Below, piece after piece: positions 8,591 through 29,227 of a stretch of 64,000 nucleotides of DNA (the first letter of the stretch is position 1; each line of letters begins with the position of its first letter). This stretch comes from a phage: sequence record PV419677.1. One strand, written 5' to 3'. The translations under genes and the position numbers were made by a program. The notes under the pieces are model-generated. The model made no database searches and was not told where the DNA came from. It saw nothing but the letters and a program-made list of their open reading frames with translations.

Positions 8591-8626
8591 TTTATTCTCC
8601 AGTATTTGGTAACTCAGTATGGGAAC

Positions 8627-8656
8627 ATTATACGCCCATCCCCATACCATGTACAC
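8627..8656 (-). promoter_or_regulatory. sigma70-like early promoter (-35 GTGTAC, -10 GTATAAT)
   Basis: plus-strand gtacac and attatac about 17 bp apart, followed by the conserved CCATACTGAGTTACC leader. Confidence 0.45.
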
Positions 8657-8658
8657 AT

Positions 8659-8961
8659 TTAATTAAAAGTTCTTTCAGTATTTTCACCACTGAACCAGAC
8701 GCTCTTAACGGCTTGCTGGGCGCGATGGAGCTGCTCTGCCATATAAACACCAAGGGCCTCAGCTTTACGCGTTCTGTGAGCTTCTGCGGCGACCATTTGC
8801 AGCTTATCCATCATGATAAGAGCTTTGCATTTCTCCTTCAGAGCATATCGCTTCTTCTCTTCTGGAGTTTTGACCATTCCTCTTAACTTGTGCATTTTCA
8901 ACTTAAAATGGTCAGCAGATTTCAGACATGCCTCAATCATGTCAAGTTCATACTTTTTCAT
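8659..8961 (-). CDS. hypothetical protein
   Basis: ORF track, 100 aa, basic. Confidence 0.5.
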   Translation of the reverse strand: MKKYELDMIEACLKSADHFKLKMHKLRGMVKTPEEKKRYALKEKCKALIMMDKLQMVAAEAHRTRKAEALGVYMAEQLHRAQQAVKSVWFSGENTERTFN

Positions 8962-8967
8962 AATTCC

Positions 8968-9174
8968 TCACTTGCGACGACGTTTTGGTAATGGTTTAGG
9001 GAAGAACATTGCTTTACCGGCAGGGGTCAAAGTCACACGCAAAGCATTACCAATACCAAGGGATGCTTTAACCAGACCTTTGGCTTTTAACTCACCAAAT
9101 GCTTGACGTTGTTCAGGGTCACGAGTGTTAACCATCAGACCTTTTTCACCAGCAGCTTTGATTAATTCTAACAT
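8968..9174 (-). CDS. small basic protein
   Basis: 68 aa, KR-rich C-terminal tail; preceded by repeat promoter/leader. Confidence 0.5.
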   Translation of the reverse strand: MLELIKAAGEKGLMVNTRDPEQRQAFGELKAKGLVKASLGIGNALRVTLTPAGKAMFFPKPLPKRRRK

Positions 9175-9215
9175 TTTATTCTCCGTTTGTTTATTTGGTA
9201 ACTCAGTATGGAATC

Positions 9216-9245
9216 ATTATGCATCATGACCATCTGGTTGTACAC
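9216..9245 (-). promoter_or_regulatory. sigma70-like early promoter (-35 GTGTAC, -10 CATAAT)
   Basis: repeat cassette; followed by CCATACTGAGTTACC leader. Confidence 0.45.
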
Positions 9246-9254
9246 TACTTTTTA

Positions 9255-9280
9255 AAATAAAAAAGGACCCCGAAGGGTCC
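9255..9280 (-). terminator. intrinsic terminator
   Basis: GGACCC-TTCG-GGGTCC hairpin followed by a U-run on the minus strand, just 3' of the ORF ending at 9288. Confidence 0.6.
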
Positions 9281-9287
9281 TTAGAAT

Positions 9288-10298
9288 TTAACGATAATAG
9301 GAATTGTGGTTGTCAAGATATACCTCCTCAACAAACTTGTCCCAGAACTTCATGTCCACCTTCGCAGGCATACCATTCTTAGCAGCCTGGATGGCCAGAA
9401 CTTCAACTAAATCGACAGTATCTTCAAGAAGTTCTTGAACTTCTTTAAATGGTAATTCACCAGCTTTAATCAGCTTAATGATAGAGGCTTCACGCAATGG
9501 GAATACCAAGTCACCTGTTTGGTAGATTTCCATCAATTGATACCCTGCACGATATGCATGGCTCAGTGCTTTCCAGTCAATACCTTCATTAGCTTCAGCC
9601 TTACGAGCACGTTCACCATATTCGGCGTCGAGTTTATCCAGAGATTGCTTGAGCTCGATTAATGATAGAGTAGTTTGGTATTTACGACCGAGGACAGTAT
9701 AGAACGTTTGAGGACCTGTTTTCTCATGGTTATGAAATACCCATTCGCAGAACTCGTTTTCAGGGAGTCGATGTTTGATATCTTCTACCTTAGTGCGACG
9801 TTGCTTAGTCGAACCGTCTTCTTGATAATCAACCCACTGTTCAGGAATCTGATTAACGATTGCCAGTACACCACGCAGTGCAGCCAATCGAGAACCTTTA
9901 ACACCATATTTGGAAGCTTGCTTACGGACATACCCCAAATAGGCTTTCATGTTAGTTGTATAGAACCGCGAACGGTTGTCTTGAATAAACTTCCATACAT
10001 CTGGTAAATCGGATTTGACTACCAGGTCAGCCGGTGTGTGAATCATATCCAGAGCAACGGTTTCGCCTTCAGCAGCCAGTTTAAAGAAATATTTCAGACT
10101 ATAAAGTTCATGGTCAACATCATCTTTTGTATTTTTGGTAGCCGTGTTATTCGTGTTCAGGTTGGTATGGTTCATCGCGGTTCCGAGCAGGATATCTCGC
10201 GGATGAGGAACAAAGATTTCTTTAAAATCGACATCAGATTCCGGAGTACTTGTTCCATAAAGGTGGGAGCCAAAATATCCCTTCATAACAGTTCTCAT
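9288..10298 (-). CDS. nucleotidyltransferase-fold protein
   Basis: N-terminal GSHLYGTSTPESDVDFKEIFV (GS..DxD signature); ATG at 10298 overlaps the upstream stop; ~336 aa. Confidence 0.6.
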   Translation of the reverse strand: MRTVMKGYFGSHLYGTSTPESDVDFKEIFVPHPRDILLGTAMNHTNLNTNNTATKNTKDDVDHELYSLKYFFKLAAEGETVALDMIHTPADLVVKSDLPDVWKFIQDNRSRFYTTNMKAYLGYVRKQASKYGVKGSRLAALRGVLAIVNQIPEQWVDYQEDGSTKQRRTKVEDIKHRLPENEFCEWVFHNHEKTGPQTFYTVLGRKYQTTLSLIELKQSLDKLDAEYGERARKAEANEGIDWKALSHAYRAGYQLMEIYQTGDLVFPLREASIIKLIKAGELPFKEVQELLEDTVDLVEVLAIQAAKNGMPAKVDMKFWDKFVEEVYLDNHNSYYR

Positions 10299-10747
10299 TT
10301 TTTGTCCTCGAAGTGGATTACAGGGCACATCTTAGATTTACGAGCTTTAATGTATTGAATAACGATGTTTTCTTTAGTTTCCTTTCCTTCACGTTTGGCT
10401 AGAATACGTTGCCATTCCTTTTCTTCTTTACGTAAATCATACCAGGACCATAAATTCATTAGACCATACATTAAACCAAATGCTACCGCCAGAATAAGAG
10501 CCAGTGTAGCTAGTCCTAAAATAAACCCTAAACCTAAACCAACCGGGGTACTTAATACAAAGAAATGCTCTAATACACCAGCCCCCGCGACAGTGAATCC
10601 AAAAACCACACTACCGATAAAAATGGCACAAACAAAACAGGCCCAAACCATTTTCCAAAAGTAAGCACACAATGAGTGTGGACGAGAATGGCGGTCATAA
10701 AATTTATCGTGGAAACGAGCATGCCAAGAGTTTGCATTGATAATCAT
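10295..10747 (-). CDS. membrane protein
   Basis: 150 aa, three hydrophobic segments, charged C-terminus. Confidence 0.6.
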   Translation of the reverse strand: MIINANSWHARFHDKFYDRHSRPHSLCAYFWKMVWACFVCAIFIGSVVFGFTVAGAGVLEHFFVLSTPVGLGLGFILGLATLALILAVAFGLMYGLMNLWSWYDLRKEEKEWQRILAKREGKETKENIVIQYIKARKSKMCPVIHFEDKK

Positions 10748-10757
10748 AATATTTTCC

Positions 10758-11318
10758 TTAAGAGTTCATAGTTGGGATAACAGAGTTCAGATAAGAGACT
10801 AAAACTTTTAGCTCGTCTTTAGTAAATACGACTTCACTTTCACCGTCATGTCTTTGGACAATGGACAACAAGTCACGACCGTTATGTTGAACAACAGTCA
10901 GTTCAGTATTATAATTCAATTCCTCTTCATCGCCTTCAAACGTTTCACTAGAACGAATCAGTGCATCTTGACCTGGGACTTTCCATTCAACTTCTGGTTT
11001 ACATTCTTCCTGGAAGAGTTTGAAAATACAATCAAAGAATTTATCAGAATCGCTAATGCTCAGGCATTCTATACCATTTTCCAGATTAAACCCATTTTCA
11101 TTTTTATAGATATAAGCGTATAGCTCATCGTTAATATCGACAGGAGCACTATGACGACCGTTAAGATATTCATCTTTATCCAAAACCATTAAATCATAAA
11201 GTGGTTTAATATCAGCGATAGTCAGTACGATTTTATCGTCTTCTTGACAAAGCTCAATTGCGTTATTAACTACTTCAGCGGTCAGTTCGCCAAACAATTC
11301 AGTTGTTTCAATAATCAT
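10758..11318 (-). CDS. hypothetical acidic protein
   Basis: ORF track, 186 aa. Confidence 0.6.
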   Translation of the reverse strand: MIIETTELFGELTAEVVNNAIELCQEDDKIVLTIADIKPLYDLMVLDKDEYLNGRHSAPVDINDELYAYIYKNENGFNLENGIECLSISDSDKFFDCIFKLFQEECKPEVEWKVPGQDALIRSSETFEGDEEELNYNTELTVVQHNGRDLLSIVQRHDGESEVVFTKDELKVLVSYLNSVIPTMNS

Positions 11319-11328
11319 TTTCTGTTCC

Positions 11329-11601
11329 TCAACGGTTATGTTTTAAAATACTATAAAGCTCTTCGACTTGGTCTGCATTCAGACAAATCATATCATTTTC
11401 TTGCTGGATTGTGATTCCACCTTTTTCTTCCCAATCTTTAACAAAGATGTCATCGTCGGATTCTTCATCATCTGCTAAAAGGACAATAATACCATCTTCA
11501 GAATTACCACTCGGGTCATATAACATTACAGTTTCCTCGCTAACCATGAAAAGAATAAACCAATTAAAACAGGTCCTACAGCCATTGTTAACCAAGCCCA
11601 A
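11329..11601 (-). CDS. hypothetical acidic protein
   Basis: ORF track, 90 aa. Confidence 0.4.
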   Translation of the reverse strand: MGLVNNGCRTCFNWFILFMVSEETVMLYDPSGNSEDGIIVLLADDEESDDDIFVKDWEEKGGITIQQENDMICLNADQVEELYSILKHNR

Positions 11602-11617
11602 GGTTCAAGATAGTAAA

Positions 11618-11875
11618 TCATCTCATGCTCCTGTGCCAACAATTTCGTGGCTCACGTTTAAAAATTTCATCATGCATTGATTGACAACCAACACAATATA
11701 TCACACCTTTAATCGCTTGTCTCCGCGCTTCAGGAATTTTTTCGTCGCAGTCAAAACAGAATTCAGCAGACTCCCTTTCAACTGCAACTTGTGCTCTCGC
11801 ATGGGTGATAGCGGCTTGGACAACCGCTTCCATCTCTAACTGTTCAGCACCATCTTTTGCAAATCCAACAGCCAT
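11618..11875 (-). CDS. TraR/DksA-family C4 zinc-finger protein
   Basis: CFDCDEKIPEARRQAIKGVIYCVGCQ matches the TraR/DksA CxxC-x17-CxxC finger. Confidence 0.65.
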   Translation of the reverse strand: MAVGFAKDGAEQLEMEAVVQAAITHARAQVAVERESAEFCFDCDEKIPEARRQAIKGVIYCVGCQSMHDEIFKREPRNCWHRSMR

Positions 11876-12057
11876 TATTCTTTCAACTCATTAAGATACT
11901 CAACCAATGCTGCTTTAGAATTCGCTAAATCTCGTTTACACTGCTCTATTCCGGAATATGAATAGCCTTCACAATGTTCAACAGCCAATTCATAAGAGTT
12001 AATTTCAACATCACGAGCGAGTTTGATAATTTTTTCAATCTGTTCAGTAGTTAACAT
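11875..12057 (-). CDS. hypothetical protein
   Basis: ORF track, 60 aa. Confidence 0.4.
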   Translation of the reverse strand: MLTTEQIEKIIKLARDVEINSYELAVEHCEGYSYSGIEQCKRDLANSKAALVEYLNELKE

Positions 12058-12061
12058 AATA

Positions 12062-12298
12062 TCACCAGTATTTTTTGATGGTAGAAATTAATTCTTGGAT
12101 TTGAGTGGTCTTCAGCTTACACCCACACCCCCTTAAGGTGTCTTTAAGGAGCCATGGCTCCTTGAGCTCGTCCTTTTCCATGCGGATTCTATATCCGCGG
12201 TAATCAGCAAATATGCTTCCGTCATCAAATATCTTAATTTCAAGAATATGATTATTGGTTTCATATTCCAATGAAACCATGGTATTTGTAAGTTTCAT
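12062..12298 (-). CDS. hypothetical protein
   Basis: ORF track, 78 aa. Confidence 0.45.
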   Translation of the reverse strand: MKLTNTMVSLEYETNNHILEIKIFDDGSIFADYRGYRIRMEKDELKEPWLLKDTLRGCGCKLKTTQIQELISTIKKYW

Positions 12299-12501
12299 TA
12301 TTCCACCACATATGATAATGAGAAAATTGCTGATGAAAGATGAGTAGCATCTTCTTCACACAGTTCAAATGGAGCTTTCTGTAAGAGTTCAACCACTTCT
12401 TCATCAGTGGCACTGTCCATAAAGATTGCATAATCATTAAGATAGATAACAACCTCATCACCAGTATTAACTGCATTAATCTTGATATTTTTAATTCTCA
12501 T
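12298..12501 (-). CDS. hypothetical acidic protein
   Basis: ORF track, 67 aa; preceded by promoter cassette. Confidence 0.45.
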   Translation of the reverse strand: MRIKNIKINAVNTGDEVVIYLNDYAIFMDSATDEEVVELLQKAPFELCEEDATHLSSAIFSLSYVVE

Positions 12502-12572
12502 TGTGTTCTCCTCAGTAGTTGATGGGATAATAGTACACCCTTTTTATGAGGATGTAAACCCCTTAATGAAAA

Positions 12573-12598
12573 AAGGTCCACCCGAAGGCAGACCTTTT
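12573..12598. terminator. symmetric hairpin flanked by A-run and T-run (possible bidirectional terminator)
   Basis: aaaaGGTCcacccgaaggcaGACCtttt. Confidence 0.4.
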
Positions 12599-12601
12599 GA
12601 A

Positions 12602-12985
12602 TTACTCTAATGTTAACAGATACTTAGTCTGAAAGAAAACTCCAACGATATCGTCCAGAGTCGATTGAATAGCCTTAGGTACAACTTTATAGACTCTTTC
12701 CGAGCTTTTAATCATTTCATCTAAAAACAAAATTGTATCTTTCGGCAAGTCCGAGGCGGACGGTAATGCAGCTTTGTATTGTTTCCCGCTGTAACCTAAC
12801 CATTGCTCACTGAACTGGTCGAGTGGACCTTGGATTTCTGTGAAGTAGAAATCATAAGCTTTATGGCGGGCGTAACTTTTGGTTTCAAGATGGGCGGACT
12901 TAAAATAAGCCAAAGAGACTAACAACCACCCAATATATGAATCCACCTCAGACCCACGACCCGTTACGAAATCATCAAATTTCAT
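12602..12985 (-). CDS. hypothetical protein (rI.-1 position)
   Basis: ORF track, 127 aa; downstream of rI. Confidence 0.5.
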   Translation of the reverse strand: MKFDDFVTGRGSEVDSYIGWLLVSLAYFKSAHLETKSYARHKAYDFYFTEIQGPLDQFSEQWLGYSGKQYKAALPSASDLPKDTILFLDEMIKSSERVYKVVPKAIQSTLDDIVGVFFQTKYLLTLE

Positions 12986-13268
12986 CTTCCAATTTTACCT
13001 TCATTAATTTAGCGTACTCGACTGCAGCAGCCCGGCCATCAATTTGACATGTGATTTCATTTACACATTGACTCTTATTGTTCCATTCAGTTTTAATAAA
13101 AGCCCAAAATTGTTCGGACTGCTCGACGCTGGGTTCTTTGAATTGCGAATAGATTTGCATCGCACTATCTGCATACTGGGTAAATTTACCATCTGTAGCA
13201 GAGGACATATTTGGGCCTAAACAGCCCATTAGTAATAGACTTAGAGAAAGTCCTCGAATAAGGTCCAT
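12975..13268 (-). CDS. rI: lysis inhibition regulator, periplasmic
   Basis: 97 aa; signal-anchor N-terminus; SEQF and Cys-x-Cys pattern resemble T4 RI as recalled; lies next to tk. Confidence 0.65.
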   Translation of the reverse strand: MDLIRGLSLSLLLMGCLGPNMSSATDGKFTQYADSAMQIYSQFKEPSVEQSEQFWAFIKTEWNNKSQCVNEITCQIDGRAAAVEYAKLMKVKLEDEI

Positions 13269-13337
13269 AAGGACTCCTATTGTTGGTCATGATTACGCTT
13301 TGCAGCCTTAACATAGCGGAATACTAGTTAGTAACTG

Positions 13338-13345
13338 TATTTATA
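13338..13345 (-). promoter_or_regulatory. late promoter octamer TATAAATA (minus strand)
   Basis: exact octamer about 70 bp 5' of the rI start. Confidence 0.4.
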
Positions 13346-13616
13346 GACGTTTAAAATTAAAGCAGTACTCTGAAAATAAACCTGCAAAATTACGTTCAAC
13401 CCAGACCCGTTGTTTTGGGCTAGTGACCATTGACAAATAGTATGCTTGTTGCAGGCTTATTCCATTTTTATTAGGACACTCTTTGTTGAACGAGTGATAG
13501 GTACTTGCAACGATTTCGACTTCGCGCTCATACCTTTCCTGGTCCTGCTGCATAGGAACAAAAACCAAAACCAGGAATATCAAAATAGAGATATACGTCC
13601 AAACCTTGTATACCAT
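13341..13616 (-). CDS. small membrane-anchored protein (rI.1 position)
   Basis: 91 aa; hydrophobic N-terminal helix. Confidence 0.5.
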   Translation of the reverse strand: MVYKVWTYISILIFLVLVFVPMQQDQERYEREVEIVASTYHSFNKECPNKNGISLQQAYYLSMVTSPKQRVWVERNFAGLFSEYCFNFKRL

Positions 13617-13623
13617 GCGAACC

Positions 13624-14196
13624 TCAGCTTGTTAATTCGAGCCAATGTTTTCTGCACAAAGATACGTACGATTCATTCCCACCGACCAATACTTGCTCGC
13701 CGTCCTTTACAGCAGCACCGTCGATTACTCGAGCGGTCATGGTTGCTTTCCGGCCGCAATGGCAGACGCCCTTTAATTCAACCAGTTTATCCGAAATAGC
13801 CAGAAGTCTGGCTGAACCGGGAAATAATTGACCCCGAAAATCTGTTCTTAACCCGTAACACATAACGGGGATATTGTAATTATCGACCACTTGAGCTAAC
13901 TGGTCAATTTGCTCTGGTAACAAAAATTGAGCTTCATCGACCAGGACACAATGGATATCCTTTTGAGACTCGGCCCATTTATAGAATTCAAACAGGTTCA
14001 TGTCGGCCGTTACCAGGTTTGCTTCCTGGCTAATACCGATGCGTGATTTAATTTCAGATTCCGAGTCCCGATTATCAATAACAGGTTTTAGCAAAAGCAC
14101 ACTCATTCCACGCTCTTTATAGGAATAAGCTGCAGTCAGCAATGAAGCTGTTTTGCCTGCATTCATTGCTGCGTAATGATAAATTAAACTCGCCAT
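13624..14196 (-). CDS. tk: thymidine kinase
   Basis: 190 aa; P-loop MNAGKTASLL; C-terminal Cys pairs typical of TK. Confidence 0.9.
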   Translation of the reverse strand: MASLIYHYAAMNAGKTASLLTAAYSYKERGMSVLLLKPVIDNRDSESEIKSRIGISQEANLVTADMNLFEFYKWAESQKDIHCVLVDEAQFLLPEQIDQLAQVVDNYNIPVMCYGLRTDFRGQLFPGSARLLAISDKLVELKGVCHCGRKATMTARVIDGAAVKDGEQVLVGGNESYVSLCRKHWLELTS

Positions 14197-14205
14197 ATCA
14201 CCTTC

Positions 14206-14391
14206 TTAAAGCGTATTCACATAAGCTATTAATTCGTTTTCTTTCTCGTCAAATCGACTAGCAAATTCTTCCAGATGGTCGGCATCTATTGGGCCATATT
14301 CATCGTAAAAAGCGTTTGCTTCGGCATGCTCTTCCAAAAGCTCATGGATGAGCTCAAACAATCTACTTTTCTGACTAATACTTAAACTCAT
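14206..14391 (-). CDS. hypothetical acidic protein
   Basis: ORF track, 61 aa. Confidence 0.45.
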   Translation of the reverse strand: MSLSISQKSRLFELIHELLEEHAEANAFYDEYGPIDADHLEEFASRFDEKENELIAYVNTL

Positions 14392-14594
14392 TTCGGTTCA
14401 CCATATCGCACAAATTTAGGATGTTCGCAATAACCAGAATGAAAACCTTCACCCTTATGATTAGAACATCCTTTATTAGAACAGTACCACCAGTAATCAT
14501 ATTCGCAATTCATTTCATCATTGCATAAAGCTGCGATTACTGGCCATTCGCATTTTTCACATTTGGCCGTTTTAAGAATTCGGGCTTGGCTCAT
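14388..14594 (-). CDS. Cys/Trp-rich small protein
   Basis: 68 aa with 9 Cys. Confidence 0.5.
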   Translation of the reverse strand: MSQARILKTAKCEKCEWPVIAALCNDEMNCEYDYWWYCSNKGCSNHKGEGFHSGYCEHPKFVRYGEPK

Positions 14595-15045
14595 AATCCA
14601 CCACTATTAAATCAATGTCAGGAGTAAACATATCAATTAATTTAGAAACCTTTTCCCAATCTCCACCTGCAATACCACAACCAATACGCGGAATATAAAT
14701 TACCGGTTTAAACAAAAGGGTTTCTGCTTGTAGATTTAATTCTATCATACAATTTACTAAAGCACCATAATCAAGATTAGGGCCCGGTTCATATTGGGTG
14801 TACAAATTATAACACATACCAAACCCATTGGGCTTATGTTTAAAAACAATAGACATATCACCGAGTTTTTCTCTGGAACCGTATTCAGTAGTGGTTTTAT
14901 CTATTTCTAAAACTTTTGGATAAGCCTTCGCCAACTGTCCGGCAACACCAGAACCCATTGTGTGGAAGCAGTTACAACCATGGGCAATAATATTACCTTG
15001 AAGAAAGAGGGCGACGATATCGCCCTTAATATACTGGGTAATCAT
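14572..15045 (-). CDS. macrodomain protein (ADP-ribose binding/hydrolase fold)
   Basis: GDIV..NIIAHGCNC..MGSGVAGQL and PRIGCGIAGGDW match macrodomain signatures (compare E. coli YmdB). Confidence 0.7.
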   Translation of the reverse strand: MITQYIKGDIVALFLQGNIIAHGCNCFHTMGSGVAGQLAKAYPKVLEIDKTTTEYGSREKLGDMSIVFKHKPNGFGMCYNLYTQYEPGPNLDYGALVNCMIELNLQAETLLFKPVIYIPRIGCGIAGGDWEKVSKLIDMFTPDIDLIVVDYEPSPNS

Positions 15046-15401
15046 TTAGAGTTCAATCCTCTATTATATGAATCCACTAACCTGTCAACCATACTGGTGC
15101 AGGCCGCCTTATATTTTGCACTTGACAGAATGCAATCCATTTCAAATAATTTCTTTTCATATTTGTTGGATAATACATTCTTTTTCAAAAGCGTATGTTC
15201 AACATCATTTTGGCCATCTTTATAGGCTGCAGTGAGCTTGGCACTGAACTGGATTACACAATCCACATTGCTTGCTGCGCAATAATCTTTGGCCGTCCTC
15301 GTTGCATATTCTATGATGCTGTTGTTGTCGTCGCTCTGTACTGAAGCTATTCCTCCCATGCTGAATACTAACCCTATGGCTAAAGTGATAACTCTTACCA
15401 T
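15042..15401 (-). CDS. secreted/periplasmic protein
   Basis: 119 aa; signal peptide MVRVITLAIGLVFSMGGIASV; four Cys. Confidence 0.55.
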   Translation of the reverse strand: MVRVITLAIGLVFSMGGIASVQSDDNNSIIEYATRTAKDYCAASNVDCVIQFSAKLTAAYKDGQNDVEHTLLKKNVLSNKYEKKLFEMDCILSSAKYKAACTSMVDRLVDSYNRGLNSK

Positions 15402-15403
15402 TT

Positions 15404-15946: not shown

Positions 15947-15956
15947 GAATTCCCCA

Positions 15957-16415
15957 TTAGATATAAATCACTTTTGTGCTAATTTTTCCTTCCAGACGAT
16001 TAGAGTTAACAAACGCCATACGACAACACATGGTCGGAGACTTCCCAGGAATAGCGGGGTTAACTGTCATTCCTAACCACAGGTTCTTGTCTGTGATTTC
16101 CAGACGAAGTGGACGGTAGTTCACATTCGGGTCAATTTGTGCTTCAACTTCCGGGAGTGGTTTCATTTCCAGGAATTCAACGATTTCTTTTACATGTGGT
16201 GTGATTTTTCCAAACAAGTCAAAAACATATTGTTCATCAATTTCACGTTGGATTGCACGGTCCAACAGGTGCGGACTGTACTTAATGAAGAATGCTTCAA
16301 GGCCTGCTTCTTTACAAGCCTTGTTGATAGCATTATTAATTTTGAGGAACTCCGTTTCAAAAATGCGACGAAGTTTATTGCGGCGAATGTAAACACTTGA
16401 ATCGATAGTAGTCAT
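15957..16415 (-). CDS. regB: RegB site-specific endoribonuclease
   Basis: from MTTIDSS: VYIRRNKLRR..HLLDRAIQREIDEQYVFDLF matches T4 RegB as recalled; 152 aa. Confidence 0.8.
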   Translation of the reverse strand: MTTIDSSVYIRRNKLRRIFETEFLKINNAINKACKEAGLEAFFIKYSPHLLDRAIQREIDEQYVFDLFGKITPHVKEIVEFLEMKPLPEVEAQIDPNVNYRPLRLEITDKNLWLGMTVNPAIPGKSPTMCCRMAFVNSNRLEGKISTKVIYI

Positions 16416-16471
16416 GATTATCTCCTTTTGTTTGATGGGATAATCATAACTCATTTCAATCTGCTTGTACA

Positions 16472-17051
<580 letters not shown>

Positions 17052-17055
<4 letters not shown>

Positions 17056-19517: not shown

Positions 19518-19550
19518 AATACCCCCTTATATAGGGGTATTTATTATCCG
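19518..19550 (-). promoter_or_regulatory. hairpin covering the e ribosome-binding site
   Basis: ccccttatatagggg inverted repeat immediately 5' of the e ATG. Confidence 0.45.
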
Positions 19551-21558: not shown

Positions 21559-21560
21559 AA

Positions 21561-22541
21561 TTATTTTTCGAAAGGACGAATTAAATGTTGGTTAGCCTTG
21601 AAACGTTTAACATAGTCTTCGTGACCCAGGGTGTTGTACATATTAACCACTTCCTGGTAATGTTCCCAGGCATACTCGCGGAACCATCCAGAAGTAATGG
21701 AGGTACAGACTTTTTCTAGTGCAATATGGAAGCTCACGGATGGAGAAATATTGAACTCATTAGGAACCTGCGAACGCTCCAGAGCAAGTACACATGCTTC
21801 TTCATAAACCCCAGCCAGTTTAATAATCTCAGGGAGTGCTTCAAATTTTTCACGCGAGGTCATAACTTCTGAATTATCCTTCATATAGAACTTATATGCA
21901 GGCTTATCAGCAAGCGCCACGGCCTCGTGGATGGAGTCATGGTCAAGGGTATAGATTGTATCATTAAAGAAAGCTTTCTTATCCACGTCTAGTTTAGGGT
22001 GGCTATATGACAATGTTTCTGCCTGGCGCTGCAGCATGATTTTATGCAGTTCGTCATTAAGAACAACCCCCTTATTGCGAAGGTAATTAATATGACTCAT
22101 GGTCTTCAGGAAGAATGGATTGTTCTTCAGGTAACGATGAGACAATTTAATTGCCAGACAAATATCAGGAGTCGCCCAATAGAAACCAGATAGACGGTCT
22201 TTCTGAATATTTGCCTTCGCATATTTGAGTAAACGATAACTGGAGGTAAAATCTTCCTCTTGTAGCTCATCAGTCAGCTCACGAACACTTGTCAATGCGC
22301 GGACGATGTACGCTTCAAAATAGGTTTCTTTACCATTGTGCATACATTTAAAAGCTTGAACATCTGGGTTATCCACATGCACATGTTGTCCCATCATCTG
22401 GGTTTTAAAGCTATTCCAGGAGCCCTGGTCAGCGATAAAGTCCCAATCAGAGTTTTCAATTTTCTGACTTTCAATCAGACCAGCGTTATGTAATGCACGA
22501 GAACCAATAACTAACATCATAATATTTTCCTCAAATAACAC
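21561..22541 (-). CDS. hypothetical protein, possible nucleotidyltransferase-like N-terminus
   Basis: VIGSRALHNAGLIESQKIENSDWDFIA (GS..DxD-like, atypical spacing). Confidence 0.5.
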   Translation of the reverse strand: MLFEENIMMLVIGSRALHNAGLIESQKIENSDWDFIADQGSWNSFKTQMMGQHVHVDNPDVQAFKCMHNGKETYFEAYIVRALTSVRELTDELQEEDFTSSYRLLKYAKANIQKDRLSGFYWATPDICLAIKLSHRYLKNNPFFLKTMSHINYLRNKGVVLNDELHKIMLQRQAETLSYSHPKLDVDKKAFFNDTIYTLDHDSIHEAVALADKPAYKFYMKDNSEVMTSREKFEALPEIIKLAGVYEEACVLALERSQVPNEFNISPSVSFHIALEKVCTSITSGWFREYAWEHYQEVVNMYNTLGHEDYVKRFKANQHLIRPFEK

Positions 22542-22772
22542 TTAAATTTCAGCAGCAGAGATATTAGATTCATCTATCATCTCAGAGGCGGACCCCTTAA
22601 CGATAGGAACCAATTTGCCATAGAGGTCTTCATTGTAAGGGTCGTTGATACAGTGTGCATCTTCAAAACAAACACCGTAATCAGACTTCTTATAAACGAG
22701 ACCGTAAATCTTTGTAAACTTAGCACGACTAATTTTTACAGGCTCATCAGTCATTGGGGCGTAATACCACAT
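22542..22772 (-). CDS. hypothetical protein
   Basis: ORF track, 76 aa. Confidence 0.5.
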   Translation of the reverse strand: MWYYAPMTDEPVKISRAKFTKIYGLVYKKSDYGVCFEDAHCINDPYNEDLYGKLVPIVKGSASEMIDESNISAAEI

Positions 22773-22875
22773 AATGTTTTCCTCATTAGTTGACGAAATA
22801 ATGATACTACATTTCTTTAGGCTTGTACACTAAATTTCTGCACATAAGTCCTCCTACCACATCCGTGTGGCTAAA

Positions 22876-23103
22876 TTATTTTCCCAACGAAATACGAGTA
22901 GGTTTTTTGCCAAAATATTCTTCATAAGAACCATCTAAACGACCTGCTTTAGACCGACAATATGAATCATACTTTTTATAATAGGTCAACTCGGTATTAT
23001 AACGTGGGTGTCTATCAGCCATAATAATACTTAACGGCCAACCTTTGGCATAATCGCGAAGACCATTTATTTTACGAATGTATCTTTTCTTTAATTTTAG
23101 CAT
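22876..23103 (-). CDS. small basic protein
   Basis: ORF track, 75 aa. Confidence 0.45.
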   Translation of the reverse strand: MLKLKKRYIRKINGLRDYAKGWPLSIIMADRHPRYNTELTYYKKYDSYCRSKAGRLDGSYEEYFGKKPTRISLGK

Positions 23104-23321
23104 GAGCTCGGGTACCAGATTTTACCATCGGAGCGAGCAACGAAGGTACGACCAGCTTCTTCACCATAACAAGAGCTATTCAGCCAATCTTCAAGACGAA
23201 CTTCACCGTCGTAATCATCTAGCTCAACACCAAAATCTTGAGCGTTAGCCATATCTTTTACTTTCTTATACAGCGCAGCCAGTTCAAGAGCTGCTTTTTC
23301 CAATTCATTAATATTAGACAT
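23097..23321 (-). CDS. small acidic protein, W-x-S-S-C tail family, member 1
   Basis: 74 aa; ends GKIWYPSSC. Confidence 0.6.
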   Translation of the reverse strand: MSNINELEKAALELAALYKKVKDMANAQDFGVELDDYDGEVRLEDWLNSSCYGEEAGRTFVARSDGKIWYPSSC

Positions 23322-23330
23322 TTTTATTCC

Positions 23331-23561
23331 TTAGCAAGACATAGAGGAGTTAAACCAGAAACCCTGGCCATCATTGATGCCATAATCACTGCGAATCCAG
23401 TCATATTCTTCATATTCTTCGCTAGAAGCCGGAATATAACGTTGGAAACGGTCTGCGGCGTGTAAATTAAAAATTTCACCGGTTTTATCGGCTAACTGCT
23501 CACCTTCACAGATTAGTGCACGGATTTGGTCTTCAATTTCTTTAACAGTTTTAGTAGTCAT
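23331..23561 (-). CDS. small acidic protein, W-x-S-S-C tail family, member 2
   Basis: 76 aa; ends GFWFNSSMSC. Confidence 0.6.
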   Translation of the reverse strand: MTTKTVKEIEDQIRALICEGEQLADKTGEIFNLHAADRFQRYIPASSEEYEEYDWIRSDYGINDGQGFWFNSSMSC

Positions 23562-23570
23562 TTTATAACC

Positions 23571-23768
23571 TTAGCATTCATAAGAGGAGGACACCCAAGA
23601 GGTACCGCTAATAGTAATACAACCATTATAAAGCGTAATATGTTGTTCCAGATTACGCTGACCGTCAATATAGATATCAGCTTCTTCGCGTTCTTCTTTG
23701 CAAATCTGGATAACGTTTTCAATAGCTGCCGCGGCAGTACGGATTGCACAATCTAATTCACGAGACAT
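23571..23768 (-). CDS. small acidic protein, W-x-S-S-C tail family, member 3
   Basis: from MSRELD; ends TSWVSSSYEC. Confidence 0.6.
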   Translation of the reverse strand: MSRELDCAIRTAAAAIENVIQICKEEREEADIYIDGQRNLEQHITLYNGCITISGTSWVSSSYEC

Positions 23769-23776
23769 ATAATTCC

Positions 23777-24058
23777 TTAACATTCAGAAGAGGAGGACAC
23801 CCAACCGCCATTTTCTAGGTCGGTTGTGTAGTCATGAGTATTAACAATAGCCCATTCAGGATGACCATCTTCTTCCCAATGAGCAAGGTCAGCTTTCAAG
23901 GCGCCAGGAGAATAATAGTCACCGCCCATACCGCGAGCAGGGTATATATTAAAATGAGTCTCATATTTGTCTGCAATTTCCTCAGCACGGCGAATGGCTT
24001 CATGGATTTCTTTTACTGCGGCCAGAAGCTCTGGTTGGTTATGGTTATCATTCATCAT
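23777..24058 (-). CDS. small acidic protein, W-x-S-S-C tail family, member 4
   Basis: from MMNDNH; ends GGWVSSSSEC. Confidence 0.6.
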   Translation of the reverse strand: MMNDNHNQPELLAAVKEIHEAIRRAEEIADKYETHFNIYPARGMGGDYYSPGALKADLAHWEEDGHPEWAIVNTHDYTTDLENGGWVSSSSEC

Positions 24059-24059
24059 A

Positions 24060-24350
24060 TTAGCACACCTCAGAAGAGGAAACCCATGCACCAACAGTAA
24101 CAACACCGTTTTCAACTCGCCCGCCGTTGTTTTCAATATGGTGAGCAAACCATTCAGAACATTCATAACCAACTGGATGATATGTACGGCCGGTGCCATA
24201 ATCGCCAGTGCTGAATTCAATACCGTACTTGTCGGCAATTTCTTCACATTTGGATTCGATGGTGTCTACTTTACTCAACAGGTCATAGATGGCTTTTTCT
24301 GCAGATTTCTCGTCGGTGTATCCAGGGATTTCAATTTCAATTTTATTCAT
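24060..24350 (-). CDS. small acidic protein, W-x-S-S-C tail family, member 5
   Basis: 96 aa; ends GAWVSSSEVC. Confidence 0.6.
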   Translation of the reverse strand: MNKIEIEIPGYTDEKSAEKAIYDLLSKVDTIESKCEEIADKYGIEFSTGDYGTGRTYHPVGYECSEWFAHHIENNGGRVENGVVTVGAWVSSSEVC

Positions 24351-24700
24351 GATTTACATTCCTTAATAAAGGTTTCAAGGTCATTACGTTTTGTTTTGTC
24401 TAGGAACTTATTATACTCAGCCATTGCCAAAGCGTATCTCTTCCGGCTAGGAGCATTCACGGCGTTTGTATGACAGATATCATACACAACAGGGATAAAA
24501 TAAGCCACAACAGCCGGAGCGATTATCATAAAGAACCCCATCTCAATAGGCATGACTCCCTCGATTGCAGCCATAACCGTGGTCATTACCAGACCAACCA
24601 AACCACCGAGCATGGCGGTGACAATTCCCAATAATAAATTGCCGCCAATATCATATTCAGCCAATTGATAAACATGTGATGCAAGACTAGGCCGTTCCAT
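24347..24700 (-). CDS. membrane protein with FIKECKS tail
   Basis: from MERPSL; two hydrophobic helices. Confidence 0.5.
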   Translation of the reverse strand: MERPSLASHVYQLAEYDIGGNLLLGIVTAMLGGLVGLVMTTVMAAIEGVMPIEMGFFMIIAPAVVAYFIPVVYDICHTNAVNAPSRKRYALAMAEYNKFLDKTKRNDLETFIKECKS

Positions 24701-25082
24701 TACGAACCTCCTTAATAAATTCTTCGGCACATTTAATTTTGTGCTCTTCTTGTAGGGAAACACATTTTTGTTCCCACTCTTTAACTCGCCCACGATATCC
24801 TTTATTCATATGATTTTGATGCCACGCATTTATCAATATCATACTCAGGACCGTAATAAAAGGAGCTGCGATTATTAGCGCCCAGGCAACTCCAACACTA
24901 ATGATATCCATATCCCCACAAAGCACCATCATTATAACCCCAACGATGCACATGGACAAAGCTCCAAATGGAGGCATAAGGTCTTTATCAATCTTGTCTG
25001 CGTATACAAATTTTTCTGGTTTACTTGGCAGATATAACGTTCGCATTTTGAACCCCTTTAGCATATTCACGACATTCAGCAA
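24687..25082 (-). CDS. membrane protein with EEFIKEV tail
   Basis: hydrophobic helices; start uncertain (25082 or 25046). Confidence 0.45.
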   Translation of the reverse strand: MLNVVNMLKGFKMRTLYLPSKPEKFVYADKIDKDLMPPFGALSMCIVGVIMMVLCGDMDIISVGVAWALIIAAPFITVLSMILINAWHQNHMNKGYRGRVKEWEQKCVSLQEEHKIKCAEEFIKEVRNGTA

Positions 25083-25593
25083 TAAAACGATTAAGCTTAC
25101 GTTTCCGTTTACGACTCTCTAATGTATACTCAGCCGCCAAATCAAGAAGCTCATCTTTATCATAATTTTTAATATCAGTATAAGCTGGGCGGCGGTCAAC
25201 CATTCCAAATACATCGCCATTCTCTAGCGCCACATAACATACTAAATGGTAATCATCATCGGCCACATTAAGAAGTACGCAATCGTTGCTCTCGTTTAAA
25301 GCATACACTGAATAACGTAGTCCAGCGAATTCTGCTTGTTGGATACTCAGATTTACATCAATAATTTCCAAGGCATCTGCAAAAGAAAGGTCTTCAGCTA
25401 AAGCAAAAATAAAAGGCAATTTTGTAGTATCGCCGCGGCTAGTTGTTCTTCTTAAGAAATCATTGGAATAACCCAGGTCACCACGGATTCTATAAAGAAC
25501 TGTGTTAGTTTCAGTGGCAAGACCGCTCCCACCAAACCAATCTACATTTGATATAAGGTCAGTATATAAGCTCATAATATTCTCCTCTCCCAA
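25021..25593 (-). CDS. hypothetical protein with NRFIAECRE near C-terminus
   Basis: ORF track, 190 aa. Confidence 0.55.
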   Translation of the reverse strand: MGEENIMSLYTDLISNVDWFGGSGLATETNTVLYRIRGDLGYSNDFLRRTTSRGDTTKLPFIFALAEDLSFADALEIIDVNLSIQQAEFAGLRYSVYALNESNDCVLLNVADDDYHLVCYVALENGDVFGMVDRRPAYTDIKNYDKDELLDLAAEYTLESRKRKRKLNRFIAECREYAKGVQNANVISAK

Positions 25594-25617
25594 TTAGGGG
25601 GCAAAGCCCCCTTTATC

Positions 25618-26211
25618 TTACTTAAGTGAATTGATGTATTCTTCAATGTCAGCGGACGTGGTATCCACACCAACCTGTGGGCCTTTGAAGGTTTCAACAC
25701 GCATCAGGGTGTCTTCAATATCAATCTTAGTCAATGCAGCGATTTCAACAACATCATCTGCAGTCGCAATACCCAGGGCAGATACCTTACGGGTTTCGCG
25801 GATGTATTCCAGTTTAACAGCTAGTTCCTGACGAGAATCATCCAGCTCTTTAACTTTCAATTTAATTTCATTACGCATTTCAACATAATCATCGGCCTTC
25901 TTACGAAGTTGTTTAGCAGTGCGGCGATACAGGAGACCCAGTTTAGCATGGACCTGGACATCCGCACCATCAGCAATCAGTTTGCGGATTTCACGCTCTT
26001 TTGAAGCGGCGAGTTGGTCTTTTTCATCGGCCAACGCACGAATGCGTTTTTCTTCATTAACAGACTTAACGTGGGCGGTCTGGAGCTCAGTAATCTTGTC
26101 AATCAGGGTAGAAGCCGCTTGAGTATATTGGTCTTCAATAGACAGGTTTTTTGCCATTGCAGTACCCAGTTTGGAGCGGATGAATTCAACAAGTTTCTTT
26201 AAAGTATTCAT
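25618..26211 (-). CDS. coiled-coil protein (tentatively PspA/IM30-like)
   Basis: 197 aa, heptad-rich charged sequence; similarity to PspA is only an impression. Confidence 0.5.
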
Positions 26212-26286
26212 GGTATTTCCTTCAGTTGGTTAATGTTTTATTATCCAGGGAACATACTATCATGTTCCCAGAGGTATGTAAACATT

Positions 26287-26685
26287 TTATTTCATTTTTG
26301 CGAGGCAGATTTCATTGGCTTCCCATTGAGCTTGCTTAATAATAGCTTTTGATACAGGAACCTTTTGGCCATAAGTTTTTGACGTTGAGAGAACAATATA
26401 TTTGTTTGTCTCATTATGACAACCCCATGATTTTTCGCCATGAGTACCTTTAACTACAGCTGACACCTCAACAGAACAACCATCAGCTCCAATCTTGGTA
26501 TCCACAATCCATTCATTTCGCTTAATTGCTTCTTCCAATGTTGCCGCTTCCGCCATCCAGTGCGTTTCAGGGTCTATTTGTTCAATCTCACGAGTTAACG
26601 CAACTCCCAAGTCTTTTGCATATTTTTGTTGTTCAGGAGTTAATGAGTCATATAACTTTTTCATTTCTTTATCTTCAATATTCAT
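26287..26685 (-). CDS. hypothetical protein
   Basis: from MNIEDKEM (ATG at 26685). Confidence 0.5.
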   Translation of the reverse strand: MNIEDKEMKKLYDSLTPEQQKYAKDLGVALTREIEQIDPETHWMAEAATLEEAIKRNEWIVDTKIGADGCSVEVSAVVKGTHGEKSWGCHNETNKYIVLSTSKTYGQKVPVSKAIIKQAQWEANEICLAKMK

Positions 26686-26719
26686 AATATTTTCCTCAAG
26701 GGGCTTTCGCCCCATTCAT

Positions 26720-27052
26720 TTAGATTTTGTTTTCCTGCACACCATAATAAAGTTCATCAGACACAATATCCAGGATGCGGCGAACATATTCATCATGGTA
26801 TTGGCAGTCAAAATCAAATGCAACAGTAGTTTCCGCTTTGCGAGTGAATTTAACTTGCACATTCAGGTGATTAACAACGTTAGTTAATTTATCAGTAAAG
26901 AACTCTTTTGCTACCGCCTGTTGGACTTGCACTTTAAACTTGGTGTTACGAATCATATTTTCAGCAGATGCGAAATTACCAGTTTTATCAAAGTCAACAA
27001 GTGCCAGGTTGATGATGAATTTCATTTTATTCTCCAGTGTTTTATTGTGCAA
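26720..27052 (-). CDS. hypothetical protein
   Basis: ORF track, 110 aa; preceded by repeat promoter/leader. Confidence 0.5.
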   Translation of the reverse strand: MHNKTLENKMKFIINLALVDFDKTGNFASAENMIRNTKFKVQVQQAVAKEFFTDKLTNVVNHLNVQVKFTRKAETTVAFDFDCQYHDEYVRRILDIVSDELYYGVQENKI

Positions 27053-27066
27053 CTCAGTATGGAATC

Positions 27067-27096
27067 ATTATGCCTTAAAGCAGGGGGCTTGTATAC
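27067..27096 (-). promoter_or_regulatory. sigma70-like early promoter (-35 GTATAC, -10 CATAAT)
   Basis: repeat cassette with CCATACTGAGTTGC leader; GGGGG..CCCCC hairpin just 5'. Confidence 0.4.
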
Positions 27097-27107
27097 CCCC
27101 TTTTTAA

Positions 27108-27551
27108 TTAAATTTCAAATTCTTTGCGGAAGTTGGAAGCATAAGACTGAACTGATGCTTTGTTGAATCCAAACTCACGCACAATCATATCAATAACAGC
27201 TCTGCGAGCAGCACCATTAGACATATTAACAGTTTTGAACATATCATAGCATAAATCTTTGTTGCTCATACCGGAGCGTTTAGGTGCCTTACGTTCAGCT
27301 TTTGGTTCAGTCTTAGGAGTAGGTTTAACTTCTGGTTTAACCTGTCCATCATTCAGACCTTTAAAAATTTTACCTGCCAGTGTTGCCAGTTTAGCAGCTT
27401 CGCCACGAGTGATACCAAATACTGCCGGGTTAAATGAAATACCTTCAGCTGTCAGACGTTTGAAGAACATACGTGCAGCGGATTGTGCTTCAGCTTCAGA
27501 AGAGTTGTTTAATGCCAGTTTAACATACTTAACCAATTTTGAAGTTTTCAT
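27108..27551 (-). CDS. hypothetical protein, paralog A (VQSYASNFRK C-terminus)
   Basis: from MKTSKL; C-terminal GAARRAVIDMIV..VQSYASNFRK shared with the next gene. Confidence 0.55.
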   Translation of the reverse strand: MKTSKLVKYVKLALNNSSEAEAQSAARMFFKRLTAEGISFNPAVFGITRGEAAKLATLAGKIFKGLNDGQVKPEVKPTPKTEPKAERKAPKRSGMSNKDLCYDMFKTVNMSNGAARRAVIDMIVREFGFNKASVQSYASNFRKEFEI

Positions 27552-27593
27552 TTTATTATCCCGTTTGTTTATTTGGTAACTCAGTATGGGATA

Positions 27594-27623
27594 ATTATAC
27601 ACTATCCCACCTGGAAGTAAAAC
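27594..27623 (-). promoter_or_regulatory. sigma70-like early promoter (-35 GTTTTAC, -10 GTATAAT)
   Basis: repeat cassette; -10 flanked by GGGATA/TATCCC. Confidence 0.45.
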
Positions 27624-27634
27624 ACTTTTCTCAA

Positions 27635-28060
27635 TTATTTTTGAGCTTTGCGGAAGTTGGAAGCATAAGACTGAACAACAGTCTTTTTGATATCATGGGT
27701 GTTAACCAGAACATCAATCAGAGCGCGACGAGCTGCACCATCTGCCATATCAATTTCTGCAAATGCCTGGAAGCAAATGTCACGAGCATTACCAGATTTG
27801 GACCGGATTTTTTCTTCTTTAACTTCTTCAATTGGGAATTCAATCATTTCAGCTTGGATTAATTCAATGATAGATTCTTTTGACTGTTTGGTGTTTACCT
27901 TCAGTTCAGAATTAAGGGACTTGGCAATGGCAACAATCTGGGTTGAAGTCAGATGAATAAGTGCATCTTCACGAATGCAGATTTCACATACTTCGTCAGC
28001 AACCATTTTGTTGGTGATGCGGGTAACAGAGAATGCAGAGGTCAGGGTCAGGAAGTTCAT
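27635..28060 (-). CDS. hypothetical protein, paralog B (VQSYASNFRK C-terminus)
   Basis: from MNFLTL; C-terminal GAARRALIDVLV..VQSYASNFRK. Confidence 0.55.
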   Translation of the reverse strand: MNFLTLTSAFSVTRITNKMVADEVCEICIREDALIHLTSTQIVAIAKSLNSELKVNTKQSKESIIELIQAEMIEFPIEEVKEEKIRSKSGNARDICFQAFAEIDMADGAARRALIDVLVNTHDIKKTVVQSYASNFRKAQK

Positions 28061-28111
28061 TTTATTTCTCCAAAGTTTTGTTTGATTCAGTGTGTAACTC
28101 AGTATGGAATC

Positions 28112-28141
28112 ATTATGCACCCGGTCAATTCGGATGTACAC
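28112..28141 (-). promoter_or_regulatory. sigma70-like early promoter (-35 GTGTAC, -10 CATAAT)
   Basis: repeat cassette with CCATACTGAGTTAC leader. Confidence 0.45.
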
Positions 28142-29226: not shown

Positions 29227-29227
29227 T

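Follow-up and report, generated by a model that had tools for sequence, protein, structure and literature searches.

The subject of this analysis is a 64,000-nucleotide stretch of phage DNA from sequence record PV419677.1 (the window), which by its sequence is part of a T4-type myovirus of the genus Gaprivervirus (VR7/VR20/SP18 group) and which carries five copies of a near-identical 26-bp repeat, each just upstream of a minus-strand gene. We conclude that these repeats are very probably the conserved centers of PeSL cassettes, i.e., early expression units that double as homology patches for recombination. PeSLs are composites of approximately 100 bp that combine an AT-rich tract, a stem-loop (often of polyG/polyC type), a sigma-70-like early promoter, and for the gene that follows, a start codon with its Shine–Dalgarno (SD) sequence (Arbiol et al., 2010, PMC2839356; Comeau et al., 2014, PMC4122927). 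There are around 50 of them per genome, mainly before ORFans in hyperplastic regions, and they lie at the junctions of indels and gene replacements (PMC2839356; PMC4122927). Apart from an only partial link to hyperplastic regions and ORFans, every PeSL feature that can be assessed at the sequence level was found at the five repeats, marking them as putative PeSL-type cassettes. We observe this in their anatomy, their copy number and distribution, the reassortment of cassette halves around an invariant 11-nt core, and one indel with its ends in that core. A preliminary description of the window had taken the repeat for a promoter-leader element and overlooked that it belongs to a described class, that it has a stem-loop part, and that the repeats are recombination points.

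A search of the window with the degenerate 26-mer GGTAACTCAGTATGGRAWCATTATRC finds five plus-strand matches at 8608–8633, 9197–9222, 27048–27073, 27575–27600, and 28093–28118 (0, 0, 2, 1, and 1 mismatches, respectively) compared to zero matches across 100 dinucleotide-preserving shuffles, and there is no antisense copy of the motif in the 64-kb window. The five near-identical copies of the preliminary description are thus borne out, the first four at the coordinates given there and the last one starting at 28093 instead of 28094. As also described, each copy sits 5′ of a minus-strand gene start (ATGs at 8590, 9174, 27025, 27551, and 28060; distance of 30 to 45 nt) and supplies the −10 element, with the hexamer (C/T)ATAAT included in the 26-mer. 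A one-mismatch copy of the core (CCATACTGAATT) at 37084–37095 on the minus strand lies inside the gene-5 homolog, is present in VR20 as well, and has no promoter context; it looks like a chance match.

Alignment of the five window copies with the 13 copies of the complete VR20 genome (18 copies) places the 26-mer at the center of a cassette of approximately 85 to 130 bp. The 26-bp unit is conserved as had been stated, but the conserved unit is larger and reaches from an A-tract and the −35 element through GGAGAATAAAATG. Its shared plan starts with the A-tract (typically AAAAAGTAG), continues with GTGTAC(A) or GTTTACA / TATACA, a 17-bp spacer, (C/T)ATAAT, and G(A/T)T(T/C)C, and leads via the invariant core CATACTGAGTT and A(C/A)(C/A) into an A-rich stretch and usually GGAGAATAAAATG. 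An A-tract such as TTAAAAAGTAG stands immediately 5′ of the −35 in the alignment. All five window copies combine TGTACA/TATACA/TTTTAC, 17-bp spacing, and (C/T)ATAAT, a pattern that is kept in the 18 aligned copies, and all five have GGAG or GGAT 6 to 7 nt before the ATG. At the usual 7-nt spacing from the −10, the predicted +1 is the A of CCATAC and the conserved block would be transcribed; the promoter-plus-leader reading of the repeat thus holds, but the first two Cs of the leader originally claimed are probably untranscribed. Counted from this start, AAAAA occupies −44 to −40, a G stands at −36, GT(G/T)TAC covers −36 to −31, ATAAT is invariant, and −3 to −1 read TCC or CCC. Early promoters of T4 and its relatives have an A-tract at −44 to −40, GTTTAC at −36 to −31, T or C at −12, and Cs at −3 to −1, besides G at −36, A at −11, and T at −7. 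In A-tract, −36 to −31 box, −10, and C-rich −3 to −1, the cassettes thus match T4-type early promoters. T4 middle promoters replace the −35 with a MotA box, (a/t)(a/t)(a/t)TGCTTtA centered at −30, and we rejected a MotA-dependent middle promoter given that TGCTT at −30 is found in 0 of the 18 aligned copies, all of which have T(G/T/A)TAC.

All five cassettes are read on the minus strand. Cassette 1 (8588–8677) stands ahead of an NrdC.8-like gene (8066–8590) and consists of an A/T-rich tract, the −35 TGTACA (8650–8655), the −10 TATAAT (8627–8632), the core CATACTGAGTT (8611–8621; predicted +1 A at 8620), the SD/RegB-type sequence GGAGAATAAAA (8590–8600), and the ATG (8588–8590). Cassette 2 (9172–9262) precedes a 68-aa open reading frame (ORF; 8968–9174; VR7 gp098-like), which is followed by an NrdC.9-like gene, and shows the A-tract AAAAAGTAG, the −35 TGTACA (9239–9244), the −10 CATAAT (9216–9221), the core at 9200–9210 (predicted +1 A at 9209), GGAGAATAAAA at 9174–9184, and the ATG at 9172–9174. 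Cassette 3 (27023–27117) lies ahead of a 101-aa ORF (26720–27025; VR20 gp140-like) with the −35 TATACA (27090–27095), the −10 CATAAT (27067–27072), the core at 27051–27061 (predicted +1 A at 27060), GGAGAATAAAA at 27025–27035, and the ATG at 27023–27025. Cassette 4 (27549–27644), ahead of a 147-aa ORF (27108–27551; VR20 gp141-like), has TTTTAC/TTTACT at 27616–27622 as −35, TATAAT at 27594–27599 as −10, the core at 27578–27588 (predicted +1 A at 27587), the SD GGATAATAAAA at 27551–27561 (a GGAU variant), and the ATG at 27549–27551. Cassette 5 (28058–28162) is located upstream of a 141-aa ORF (27635–28060; VR20 gp143-like and a paralog of the 27108–27551 gene) and comprises an A-tract, the −35 TGTACA (28135–28140), the −10 CATAAT (28112–28117), the core at 28096–28106 (predicted +1 A at 28105), a longer leader of 45 nt, the SD GGAGAAATAAA at 28061–28071 (one extra A relative to the RegB consensus), and the ATG at 28058–28060.

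Five PeSL subclasses are told apart by the place of the stem-loop, which may be in the upstream AT-rich tract, across the −35, between −35 and −10, across the −10, or just ahead of the start site (PMC2839356; PMC4122927). Each of the five window copies has a stable hairpin (−12.4 to −15.5 kcal/mol), and three of the five subclass positions are represented among them. The stem-loop of cassette 1 (8612–8652, minus strand; GTATGGG... / ...CCCATAC; −14.7 kcal/mol) carries the −10 in its loop and corresponds to the subclass overlapping the −10; in the comparison with shuffles, it folds at −16.0 versus −9.6 (fraction 0.008). The same arrangement is seen for cassette 4 (27582–27613, minus strand; GTGGGATA / TATCCCAT; −14.6 kcal/mol; fraction of shuffles 0.012), and in both hairpins the promoter spacer pairs with the discriminator and core so that the −10 hexamer is looped out. 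In cassette 3, the G5/C5 stem-loop AGGGGGTATACAAGCCCCCT (27082–27101, minus strand; −12.4 kcal/mol) lies across the −35, i.e., in the subclass overlapping the −35, and is of the polyG/polyC type typical for PeSLs. The other two cassettes have their stem-loops upstream: the predicted intrinsic terminator AAGGACCCTTCGGGGTCCTT with a T-run (9263–9282, minus strand; −13.3 kcal/mol) is directly upstream of cassette 2, and the terminator stem-loop AGCCCCTTCCGAAAGGTTGGGGCT with T5 (28184–28207, minus strand; −15.5 kcal/mol), which ends the tRNA/rnaC/rnaD unit, precedes the −35 of cassette 5 by around 40 nt.

Tested against 500 spacer shuffles, stems bracketing the −10 reach significance (fractions 0.000 to 0.022) for nrdC.8, 27575/gp142, frd.1, and gp152 and for none of the other copies. 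The discriminator differs between copies (GTTCC, TATCC, GGTCC, and GATTC) and the spacer varies alongside, suggesting that pairing is kept by different sequences. We rejected a hairpin that loops out the −10 as a family-wide feature, since it is significant in only around one third of copies, and treat it instead as one of the PeSL stem-loop positions. The inverted core in the spacer of some copies resembles a palindromic operator centered on the −10, which raises the question of whether a phage-encoded factor acts at the start site through the core as its DNA operator, for example in a T4-type early-promoter shut-off, with the core promoters as its regulon. The early-promoter shut-off of T4 indeed lacks an explanation (PMC3014915), and the conservation of the core has sharp edges at −1 and +10. 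However, the inverted repeat is seen in only around a third of copies, and its arms are spaced around 23 bp center to center in VR20 gp152 compared to around 28 bp in MP1, an inconstancy that suits a hairpin with a free loop better than a dimeric DNA-binding protein. Moreover, stem-loops overlapping the −10 are already an established PeSL subclass, and T4 itself does not have the motif at detectable similarity. We therefore consider a DNA operator very unlikely.

Four further early-promoter cassettes of the window, with −10 hexamers at 29781, 29447, 19005, and 18544 on the minus strand, make up a second family. These have a TGTAC(G/A) −35, a 9-bp stem around the −10 (e.g., GATGGGATA...TATCCCATC), and a short leader of another sequence, ATCAACTAC-GGAG. 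Behind the copies at 29781 and 18544, the genes start with MKTYQEFI, a leader peptide of the T4 internal-protein type, and the copy at 29447 bears the fourth perfect RegB-type site of the window (29413–29423).

Within the 13 VR20 paralogs, mean pairwise identity is 55% over the 14 nt upstream of the −35, 69% in the −35, 38% in the spacer, 92% in the −10, 78% in the discriminator, 100% in the 11-nt core, and 66% in the next 9 nt. Of the 27 promoter-linked cores in sequences from six phages, 26 match exactly and the remaining one differs by a single base. This profile bears on the possibility that the repeats are just the residue of recent tandem gene duplications, with neither leader nor repetition having a function. 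Such an origin would fit the spacing of three of the copies, which are 518 and 527 bp apart as a tandem cluster (27048, 27575, and 28093), and the genes behind copies 28093 and 27575, which are not unrelated as had been thought but paralogs (34% identity) sharing a C-terminal coding stretch beside the cassette. Yet copies are scattered genome-wide before unrelated genes, the combination of 38% identity in the spacer with 100% in the core is the opposite of what recent wholesale duplication would leave behind, and the core survives in another genus. We find this explanation scarcely credible.

A 91-nt cassette query matched 49 phage records, approximately 44 of them Gaprivervirus with 10 to 14 places each, while other T4-like genera gave zero or one match. 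The 13 core-bearing copies of VR20 lie 25 to 45 nt ahead of minus-strand early genes that are unrelated among themselves. Besides VR20, an exact-motif scan of the IMG/VR isolate genomes found only VR25, VR26, IME341, and Morganella phage MP1. The latter belongs to another genus, Gualtarvirus, and right after its tRNA cluster shows a tandem array of at least three cassettes that have this core, ahead of a gp141-like gene (52% amino acid identity) and a Frd.1-like gene (44% identity). At the divergence of MP1 and VR20, unconstrained DNA would be randomized, which argues that the core is under selection. The MP1 paper mentions 12 promoters found with MEME and nothing further on them, and we found no specific description of cassettes of VR7-like phages or Gaprivervirus in the searchable literature. 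At 105466–105779 of VR20 (5466–5779 of the extracted locus), a core-bearing early cassette (TCATACTGAGTT) and the small minus-strand gene gp246 are located between the late head genes 23 and 24.

The role of the cassettes in recombination is best seen where close relatives differ in gene content. Between their gp143-like and gp141-like genes, VR20 and PSD2001 have a gp142-like gene, which is missing from the window, P479, and phage 212. In a three-way alignment, the gap runs core to core, i.e., from ...GTATAATTATC|CCATACTGAGTTA of one cassette to the core of the next. Window copy 27575 is correspondingly a chimera: its part upstream of the core equals the VR20 gp142 cassette at 100% identity, and its part downstream of the core equals the gp141 cassette, also at 100%. 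This is exactly what the loss or gain of the gene in between by cassette-to-cassette recombination should produce, in line with the published PeSL model. On a broader scale, similarity upstream and downstream of the core is uncorrelated among the VR20 paralogs (r = −0.18; 78 pairs, n = 13), with gp094 and gp161 sharing the terminator/−35 half and not the leader half, and gp140 and 30.8 sharing the leader half only. The gp141-like and Frd.1-like genes are adjacent in MP1 and around 77 kb apart in VR20, so units of gene plus cassette have moved. In addition, the last ~31 nt of coding sequence of the two paralogs recur before the next cassette and would offer a longer homology for recombination. 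P479 has another indel, an ORF of 600 bp with copies of the GGGCTTTTTTATA terminator (as found at 28184–28207) on its two sides, implying that the core is not the sole crossover patch. Separately, PSD2001 and SP18 lack the gp139-like gene (phrog_8232; 26287–26715, minus strand) that the window shares with VR20, P479, and phage 212; one edge of this gap is at the GGGGCGAAAGCCCC stem-loop, making it another indel at a stem-loop.

The same observations might be thought to reveal a dedicated, integron-like site-specific recombination that moves gene cassettes and uses the core as its site. The indel junction falls exactly in the core, cassette halves reassort freely, and Arbiol and colleagues left a targeted recombinase open for PeSLs (PMC2839356). 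Nevertheless, the clusters come without an associated recombinase or integrase, the P479 indel is at the terminator repeat and not at the core, T4-type recombination needs only short homology, and published mini-circle junctions are spread from the −10 to the ATG (PMC2839356). A dedicated recombination system is thus extremely unlikely in our view, and we keep to PeSL cassettes that recombine as patches of homology.

The leaders predicted for the five window copies are 30 to 45 nt long, A-rich, and unstructured: these 5′ untranslated regions fold at −0.4 to −3.7 kcal/mol, each worse than the mean of its own shuffles (z = +0.6 to +1.9). A covariance search of 26000–29500 with Rfam 15 (E ≤ 1) returned two tRNAs and no other family, and a structured leader or riboswitch was rejected on both grounds. 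Similarly rejected was a translational enhancer pairing with rRNA, as the leader complement has 2 matches (≤3 mismatches) in the rrnB operon versus 0.94 expected. Pairing with a phage small RNA was not supported either, with the duplex to the tRNA/rnaC/rnaD block at −10.4 kcal/mol versus −9.4 ± 1.8 for shuffled leaders (p ≈ 0.29).

These results leave the idea of the preliminary description that the shared leader is the target of a common regulator, RNase, or small RNA with its RNase component, at a site outside the 26-mer. RegB of T4, an endoribonuclease that acts with ribosomal protein S1, cuts early mRNAs within the SD, leading to their inactivation, and requires its GGA to be unpaired (PMC3014915). 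The consensus for strong RegB/S1 sites is given as GG*AGRAYARAA (Durand et al., 2006, as quoted by Uzan and Miller, 2010, PMC3014915). The corresponding GGAGAATAAAA / GGAGRAYARAA occurs 4 times in the 64 kb versus 0.39 expected, always at minus-strand early-gene starts and 3 times in the studied cassettes. Copies 8608, 9197, and 27048 match the consensus at 11 of 11 positions, 27575 is of the GGAU type, and in 28093 one nucleotide is inserted. At 15957–16472, the minus strand encodes a regB homolog (phrog_1323, E 5.8e-72, residues 22–171; regB is annotated in ECML-359), and its product is likely the trans-acting partner of the cassette SD. Judging from these matches, a common RNase is a reasonable proposal for the GGAG site.

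A stronger version of the idea would make the conserved 15-nt leader itself an RNA-level operator, i.e., a 5′ untranslated site shared by all these messages and bound by a regulator protein, RNase, or small RNA. The core is invariant in 13 paralogs with flanks free to vary, is kept in another genus where the orthologous protein is only 52% identical, and is predicted to lie at the extreme 5′ end of the mRNA, and RegB and RegA of T4 are precedents for sequence-specific RNA control of early messages (PMC3014915). But the leaders have neither an Rfam match nor structure, their complementarity to rRNA or to the tRNA/rnaC/rnaD block is not above chance, there is no antisense motif in the window, the documented RNase site is the GGAG 15 to 30 nt downstream of the core, and a DNA-level constraint on the initial transcribed sequence accounts for the same pattern. 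An RNA operator therefore seems rather unlikely to us.

Taken as PeSLs, the cassettes would each be a self-contained expression unit for a small early gene. The stem-loop, be it upstream of the −35, over the −35, or over the −10, would attenuate or terminate incoming transcription. Host sigma-70 RNA polymerase would then start at the strong T4-type early promoter, at the A of CCATAC, and produce a short, unstructured, A-rich leader with the SD embedded in an 11-nt RegB/S1-type site. The combination of a strong promoter with a RegB-type SD leads us to expect expression that is strong at once and then shut off post-transcriptionally. As one genome holds the same ~26 to 30 bp in many places (13 in VR20), the cassettes would also act as homology patches at which the phage recombination system may delete, insert, and reshuffle the genes between them.

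The least certain step of this explanation is the frozen core, and we consider it most likely that the invariance from −1 to +10 results from selection either on the mRNA 5′ end or on the initial transcribed sequence, the latter via promoter escape or initial pausing. Promoter output can change more than 10-fold with the initial transcribed sequence, the first ~10 nt mattering most (PMC5961368), and the length of the invariant block matches these first ~10 nt. Gene conversion is less probable as the cause, since the spacer would then have been homogenized too, and the sharp edges of conservation point to a constraint on the block itself. The core may have its role at the mRNA 5′ end or as a DNA operator. 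It is even conceivable, if improbable, that CATACTGAGTT (−1 to +10) is no side effect of the copying of cassettes but a dedicated control element of an immediate-early regulon of around 13 genes across Gaprivervirus and Gualtarvirus, either as a programmed pause/escape signal in initial transcription or as the target of an early shut-off factor.

Several points weigh against reading the repeats simply as PeSLs. Membership in this class alone does not explain the core, as the PeSL papers report conservation over approximately 100 bp and no invariant initial block, and the T+5 G+6 of the core is a Y–G step linked to initial pausing and slower escape in vitro, so that an optimization for fast escape would be too simple an account. 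The canonical extended −10 of T4 early promoters (TG at −15/−14) was absent in a scan of the window, and three copies have a TG one base too close, at −14/−13. Several VR20 cassettes precede conserved T4 genes (srd, 30.8, frd.1, and nrdC.8) and not ORFans, and one lies within the late head-gene block, leaving the association with hyperplastic regions and ORFans only partial. A single indel junction in the core is no proof that the core is the usual crossover point, and the P479 indel used the terminator repeat. Finally, we infer promoter activity, start site, terminator activity, and RegB cleavage from the literature.

The 26- to 30-kb segment of the window matches a partial record of Shigella phage fPSFA at 100% identity and, in several pieces, VR20, SP18, P479, and other Gaprivervirus at around 95%. 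With annotation transferred from ECML-359 and VR20, the minus strand reads nrdD ... nrdC.x, mobD.x, rI, tk, vs, regB, denV, e, nudE, e.x, tRNAs, ip genes, 57B/57A, 1, 3, and 2, and plus-strand baseplate genes come after this block. Copies 8608 and 9197 lie by the NrdC.8-like and NrdC.9-like genes, and the tandem cluster of three lies just downstream of the tRNA genes. By annotation and profile matches, the window genes behind the cassettes are without assigned function. The two paralogs on the minus strand, 27108–27551 (phrog_18416) and 27635–28060 (phrog_9997), have a common C-terminal module ending in VQSYASNFRK, which Morganella phage MP1 keeps as …VQSYASNYRK (172–603 of the locus compared).

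Some features of the neighboring tRNA region are worth recording in their own right. An ORF-free block of around 400 nt (28180–28595, minus strand) right after tRNA-Arg and tRNA-Met is 92% to 95% identical to Tequatrovirus genomes and is labelled rnaC/rnaD in RB59, i.e., as the T4 stable RNAs of unknown function. It holds a tRNA-like T-arm (CCGGGTTCAAATCCCGG), matches no Rfam family, and is called a hypothetical protein in many relatives (e.g., VR20 gp146). The tRNA sets vary among close relatives, with Arg, Asn, and Met in SP18 (3831–4064 of its extracted locus) and only Arg and Met in the window (28590–28746) and VR20. Next to the tRNA genes, PSD2001 has an extra ORF of around 230 codons (MSICKHCNKEFDTS...; alignment columns 1–700), which is not found in the window and other relatives and may be an insertion of the homing-endonuclease type.

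No new principle emerges from these findings, which add a further genus of T4-like coliphages to the PeSL picture. They do provide a clean natural example of a chimeric cassette formed by the gain or loss of one gene, and of gene-plus-cassette units at different positions in two genera. For phages relevant to therapy, the cassettes are useful in annotation and engineering by marking true gene starts and strong early promoters, and they also flag messages that are likely controlled by RegB and places where accessory genes are swapped. The ten frozen initially transcribed bases next to a freely drifting spacer are relevant to research on promoter escape or early shut-off.

Among known systems, the early promoters of phage T5 and N25 offer a possible model for how the core acts. 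They form a family of very strong sigma-70 phage promoters with shared sequence downstream of +1 (Kammerer et al., 1986, as summarized in PMC5961368). The cassettes are alike in sharing sequence past +1, a functional analogy only and without sequence relationship, and differ in that their block is strictly invariant and has the Y–G step at +5/+6. Such conserved initial transcribed sequences of strong coliphage promoters were reportedly also treated by Gentz and Bujard (1985). Compared to the RegB/S1 sites of T4 early mRNAs, the cassettes show an exact match over the SD and the A of the ATG in three of five copies, unpaired leaders, and a regB homolog in the same window; the difference is that this site lies outside the 26-mer and that cleavage in this phage is predicted from sequence.

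The authors of the PeSL studies trace their idea to promoter/terminator repeats of around 70 bp surrounding internal-protein genes, reported in 1994. In that year, Repoila and colleagues reportedly described ~70-bp early-promoter/terminator repeats that flank the internal-protein (IP) genes of T-even phages. Similar to our cassettes, these promoter and stem-loop units bracket small swappable early genes by the tRNA/ipI and ipII/ipIII loci, and the 26- to 28-kb cluster of the window is found in exactly that neighborhood. Yet the IP-type genes of the window (with MKTYQEF... N-termini) use the second cassette family with the leader ATCAACTAC-GGAG, while the five copies studied here precede non-IP genes.

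The closest likeness is to the PeSLs of RB49/phi1, PST/T4, and nt-1/KVP40. The cassettes share with them the parts and their order, the 17-bp spacing, and the presence of many copies before small genes without assigned function, as well as a position of copies at the junctions of indels that distinguish close relatives and cassettes that are chimeric after an intervening gene was lost. The consensus of PST/T4 PeSLs is TTTACW-N17-TAYWAT, and PeSLs are reported for nt-1/KVP40 too (Comeau et al., 2014, PMC4122927); this consensus is close to the T[G/T]TACA ... (C/T)ATAAT of the window. For RB49/phi1 PeSLs, promoter and terminator activity were demonstrated along with mini-circles whose crossovers are scattered between the −10 and the ATG (PMC2839356); for the window cassettes, such activities are predicted from sequence. 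The sub-family of the window is set apart by the invariant 11-nt block from −1 to +10 and the near-fixed GGAGAATAAAATG translation start, neither of which was pointed out in the PeSL papers, and by several copies (in VR20) before conserved T4 genes instead of ORFans. Based on this comparison, the five repeats are best recorded as a putative Gaprivervirus (plus Gualtarvirus) sub-family of PeSL cassettes, a known class.

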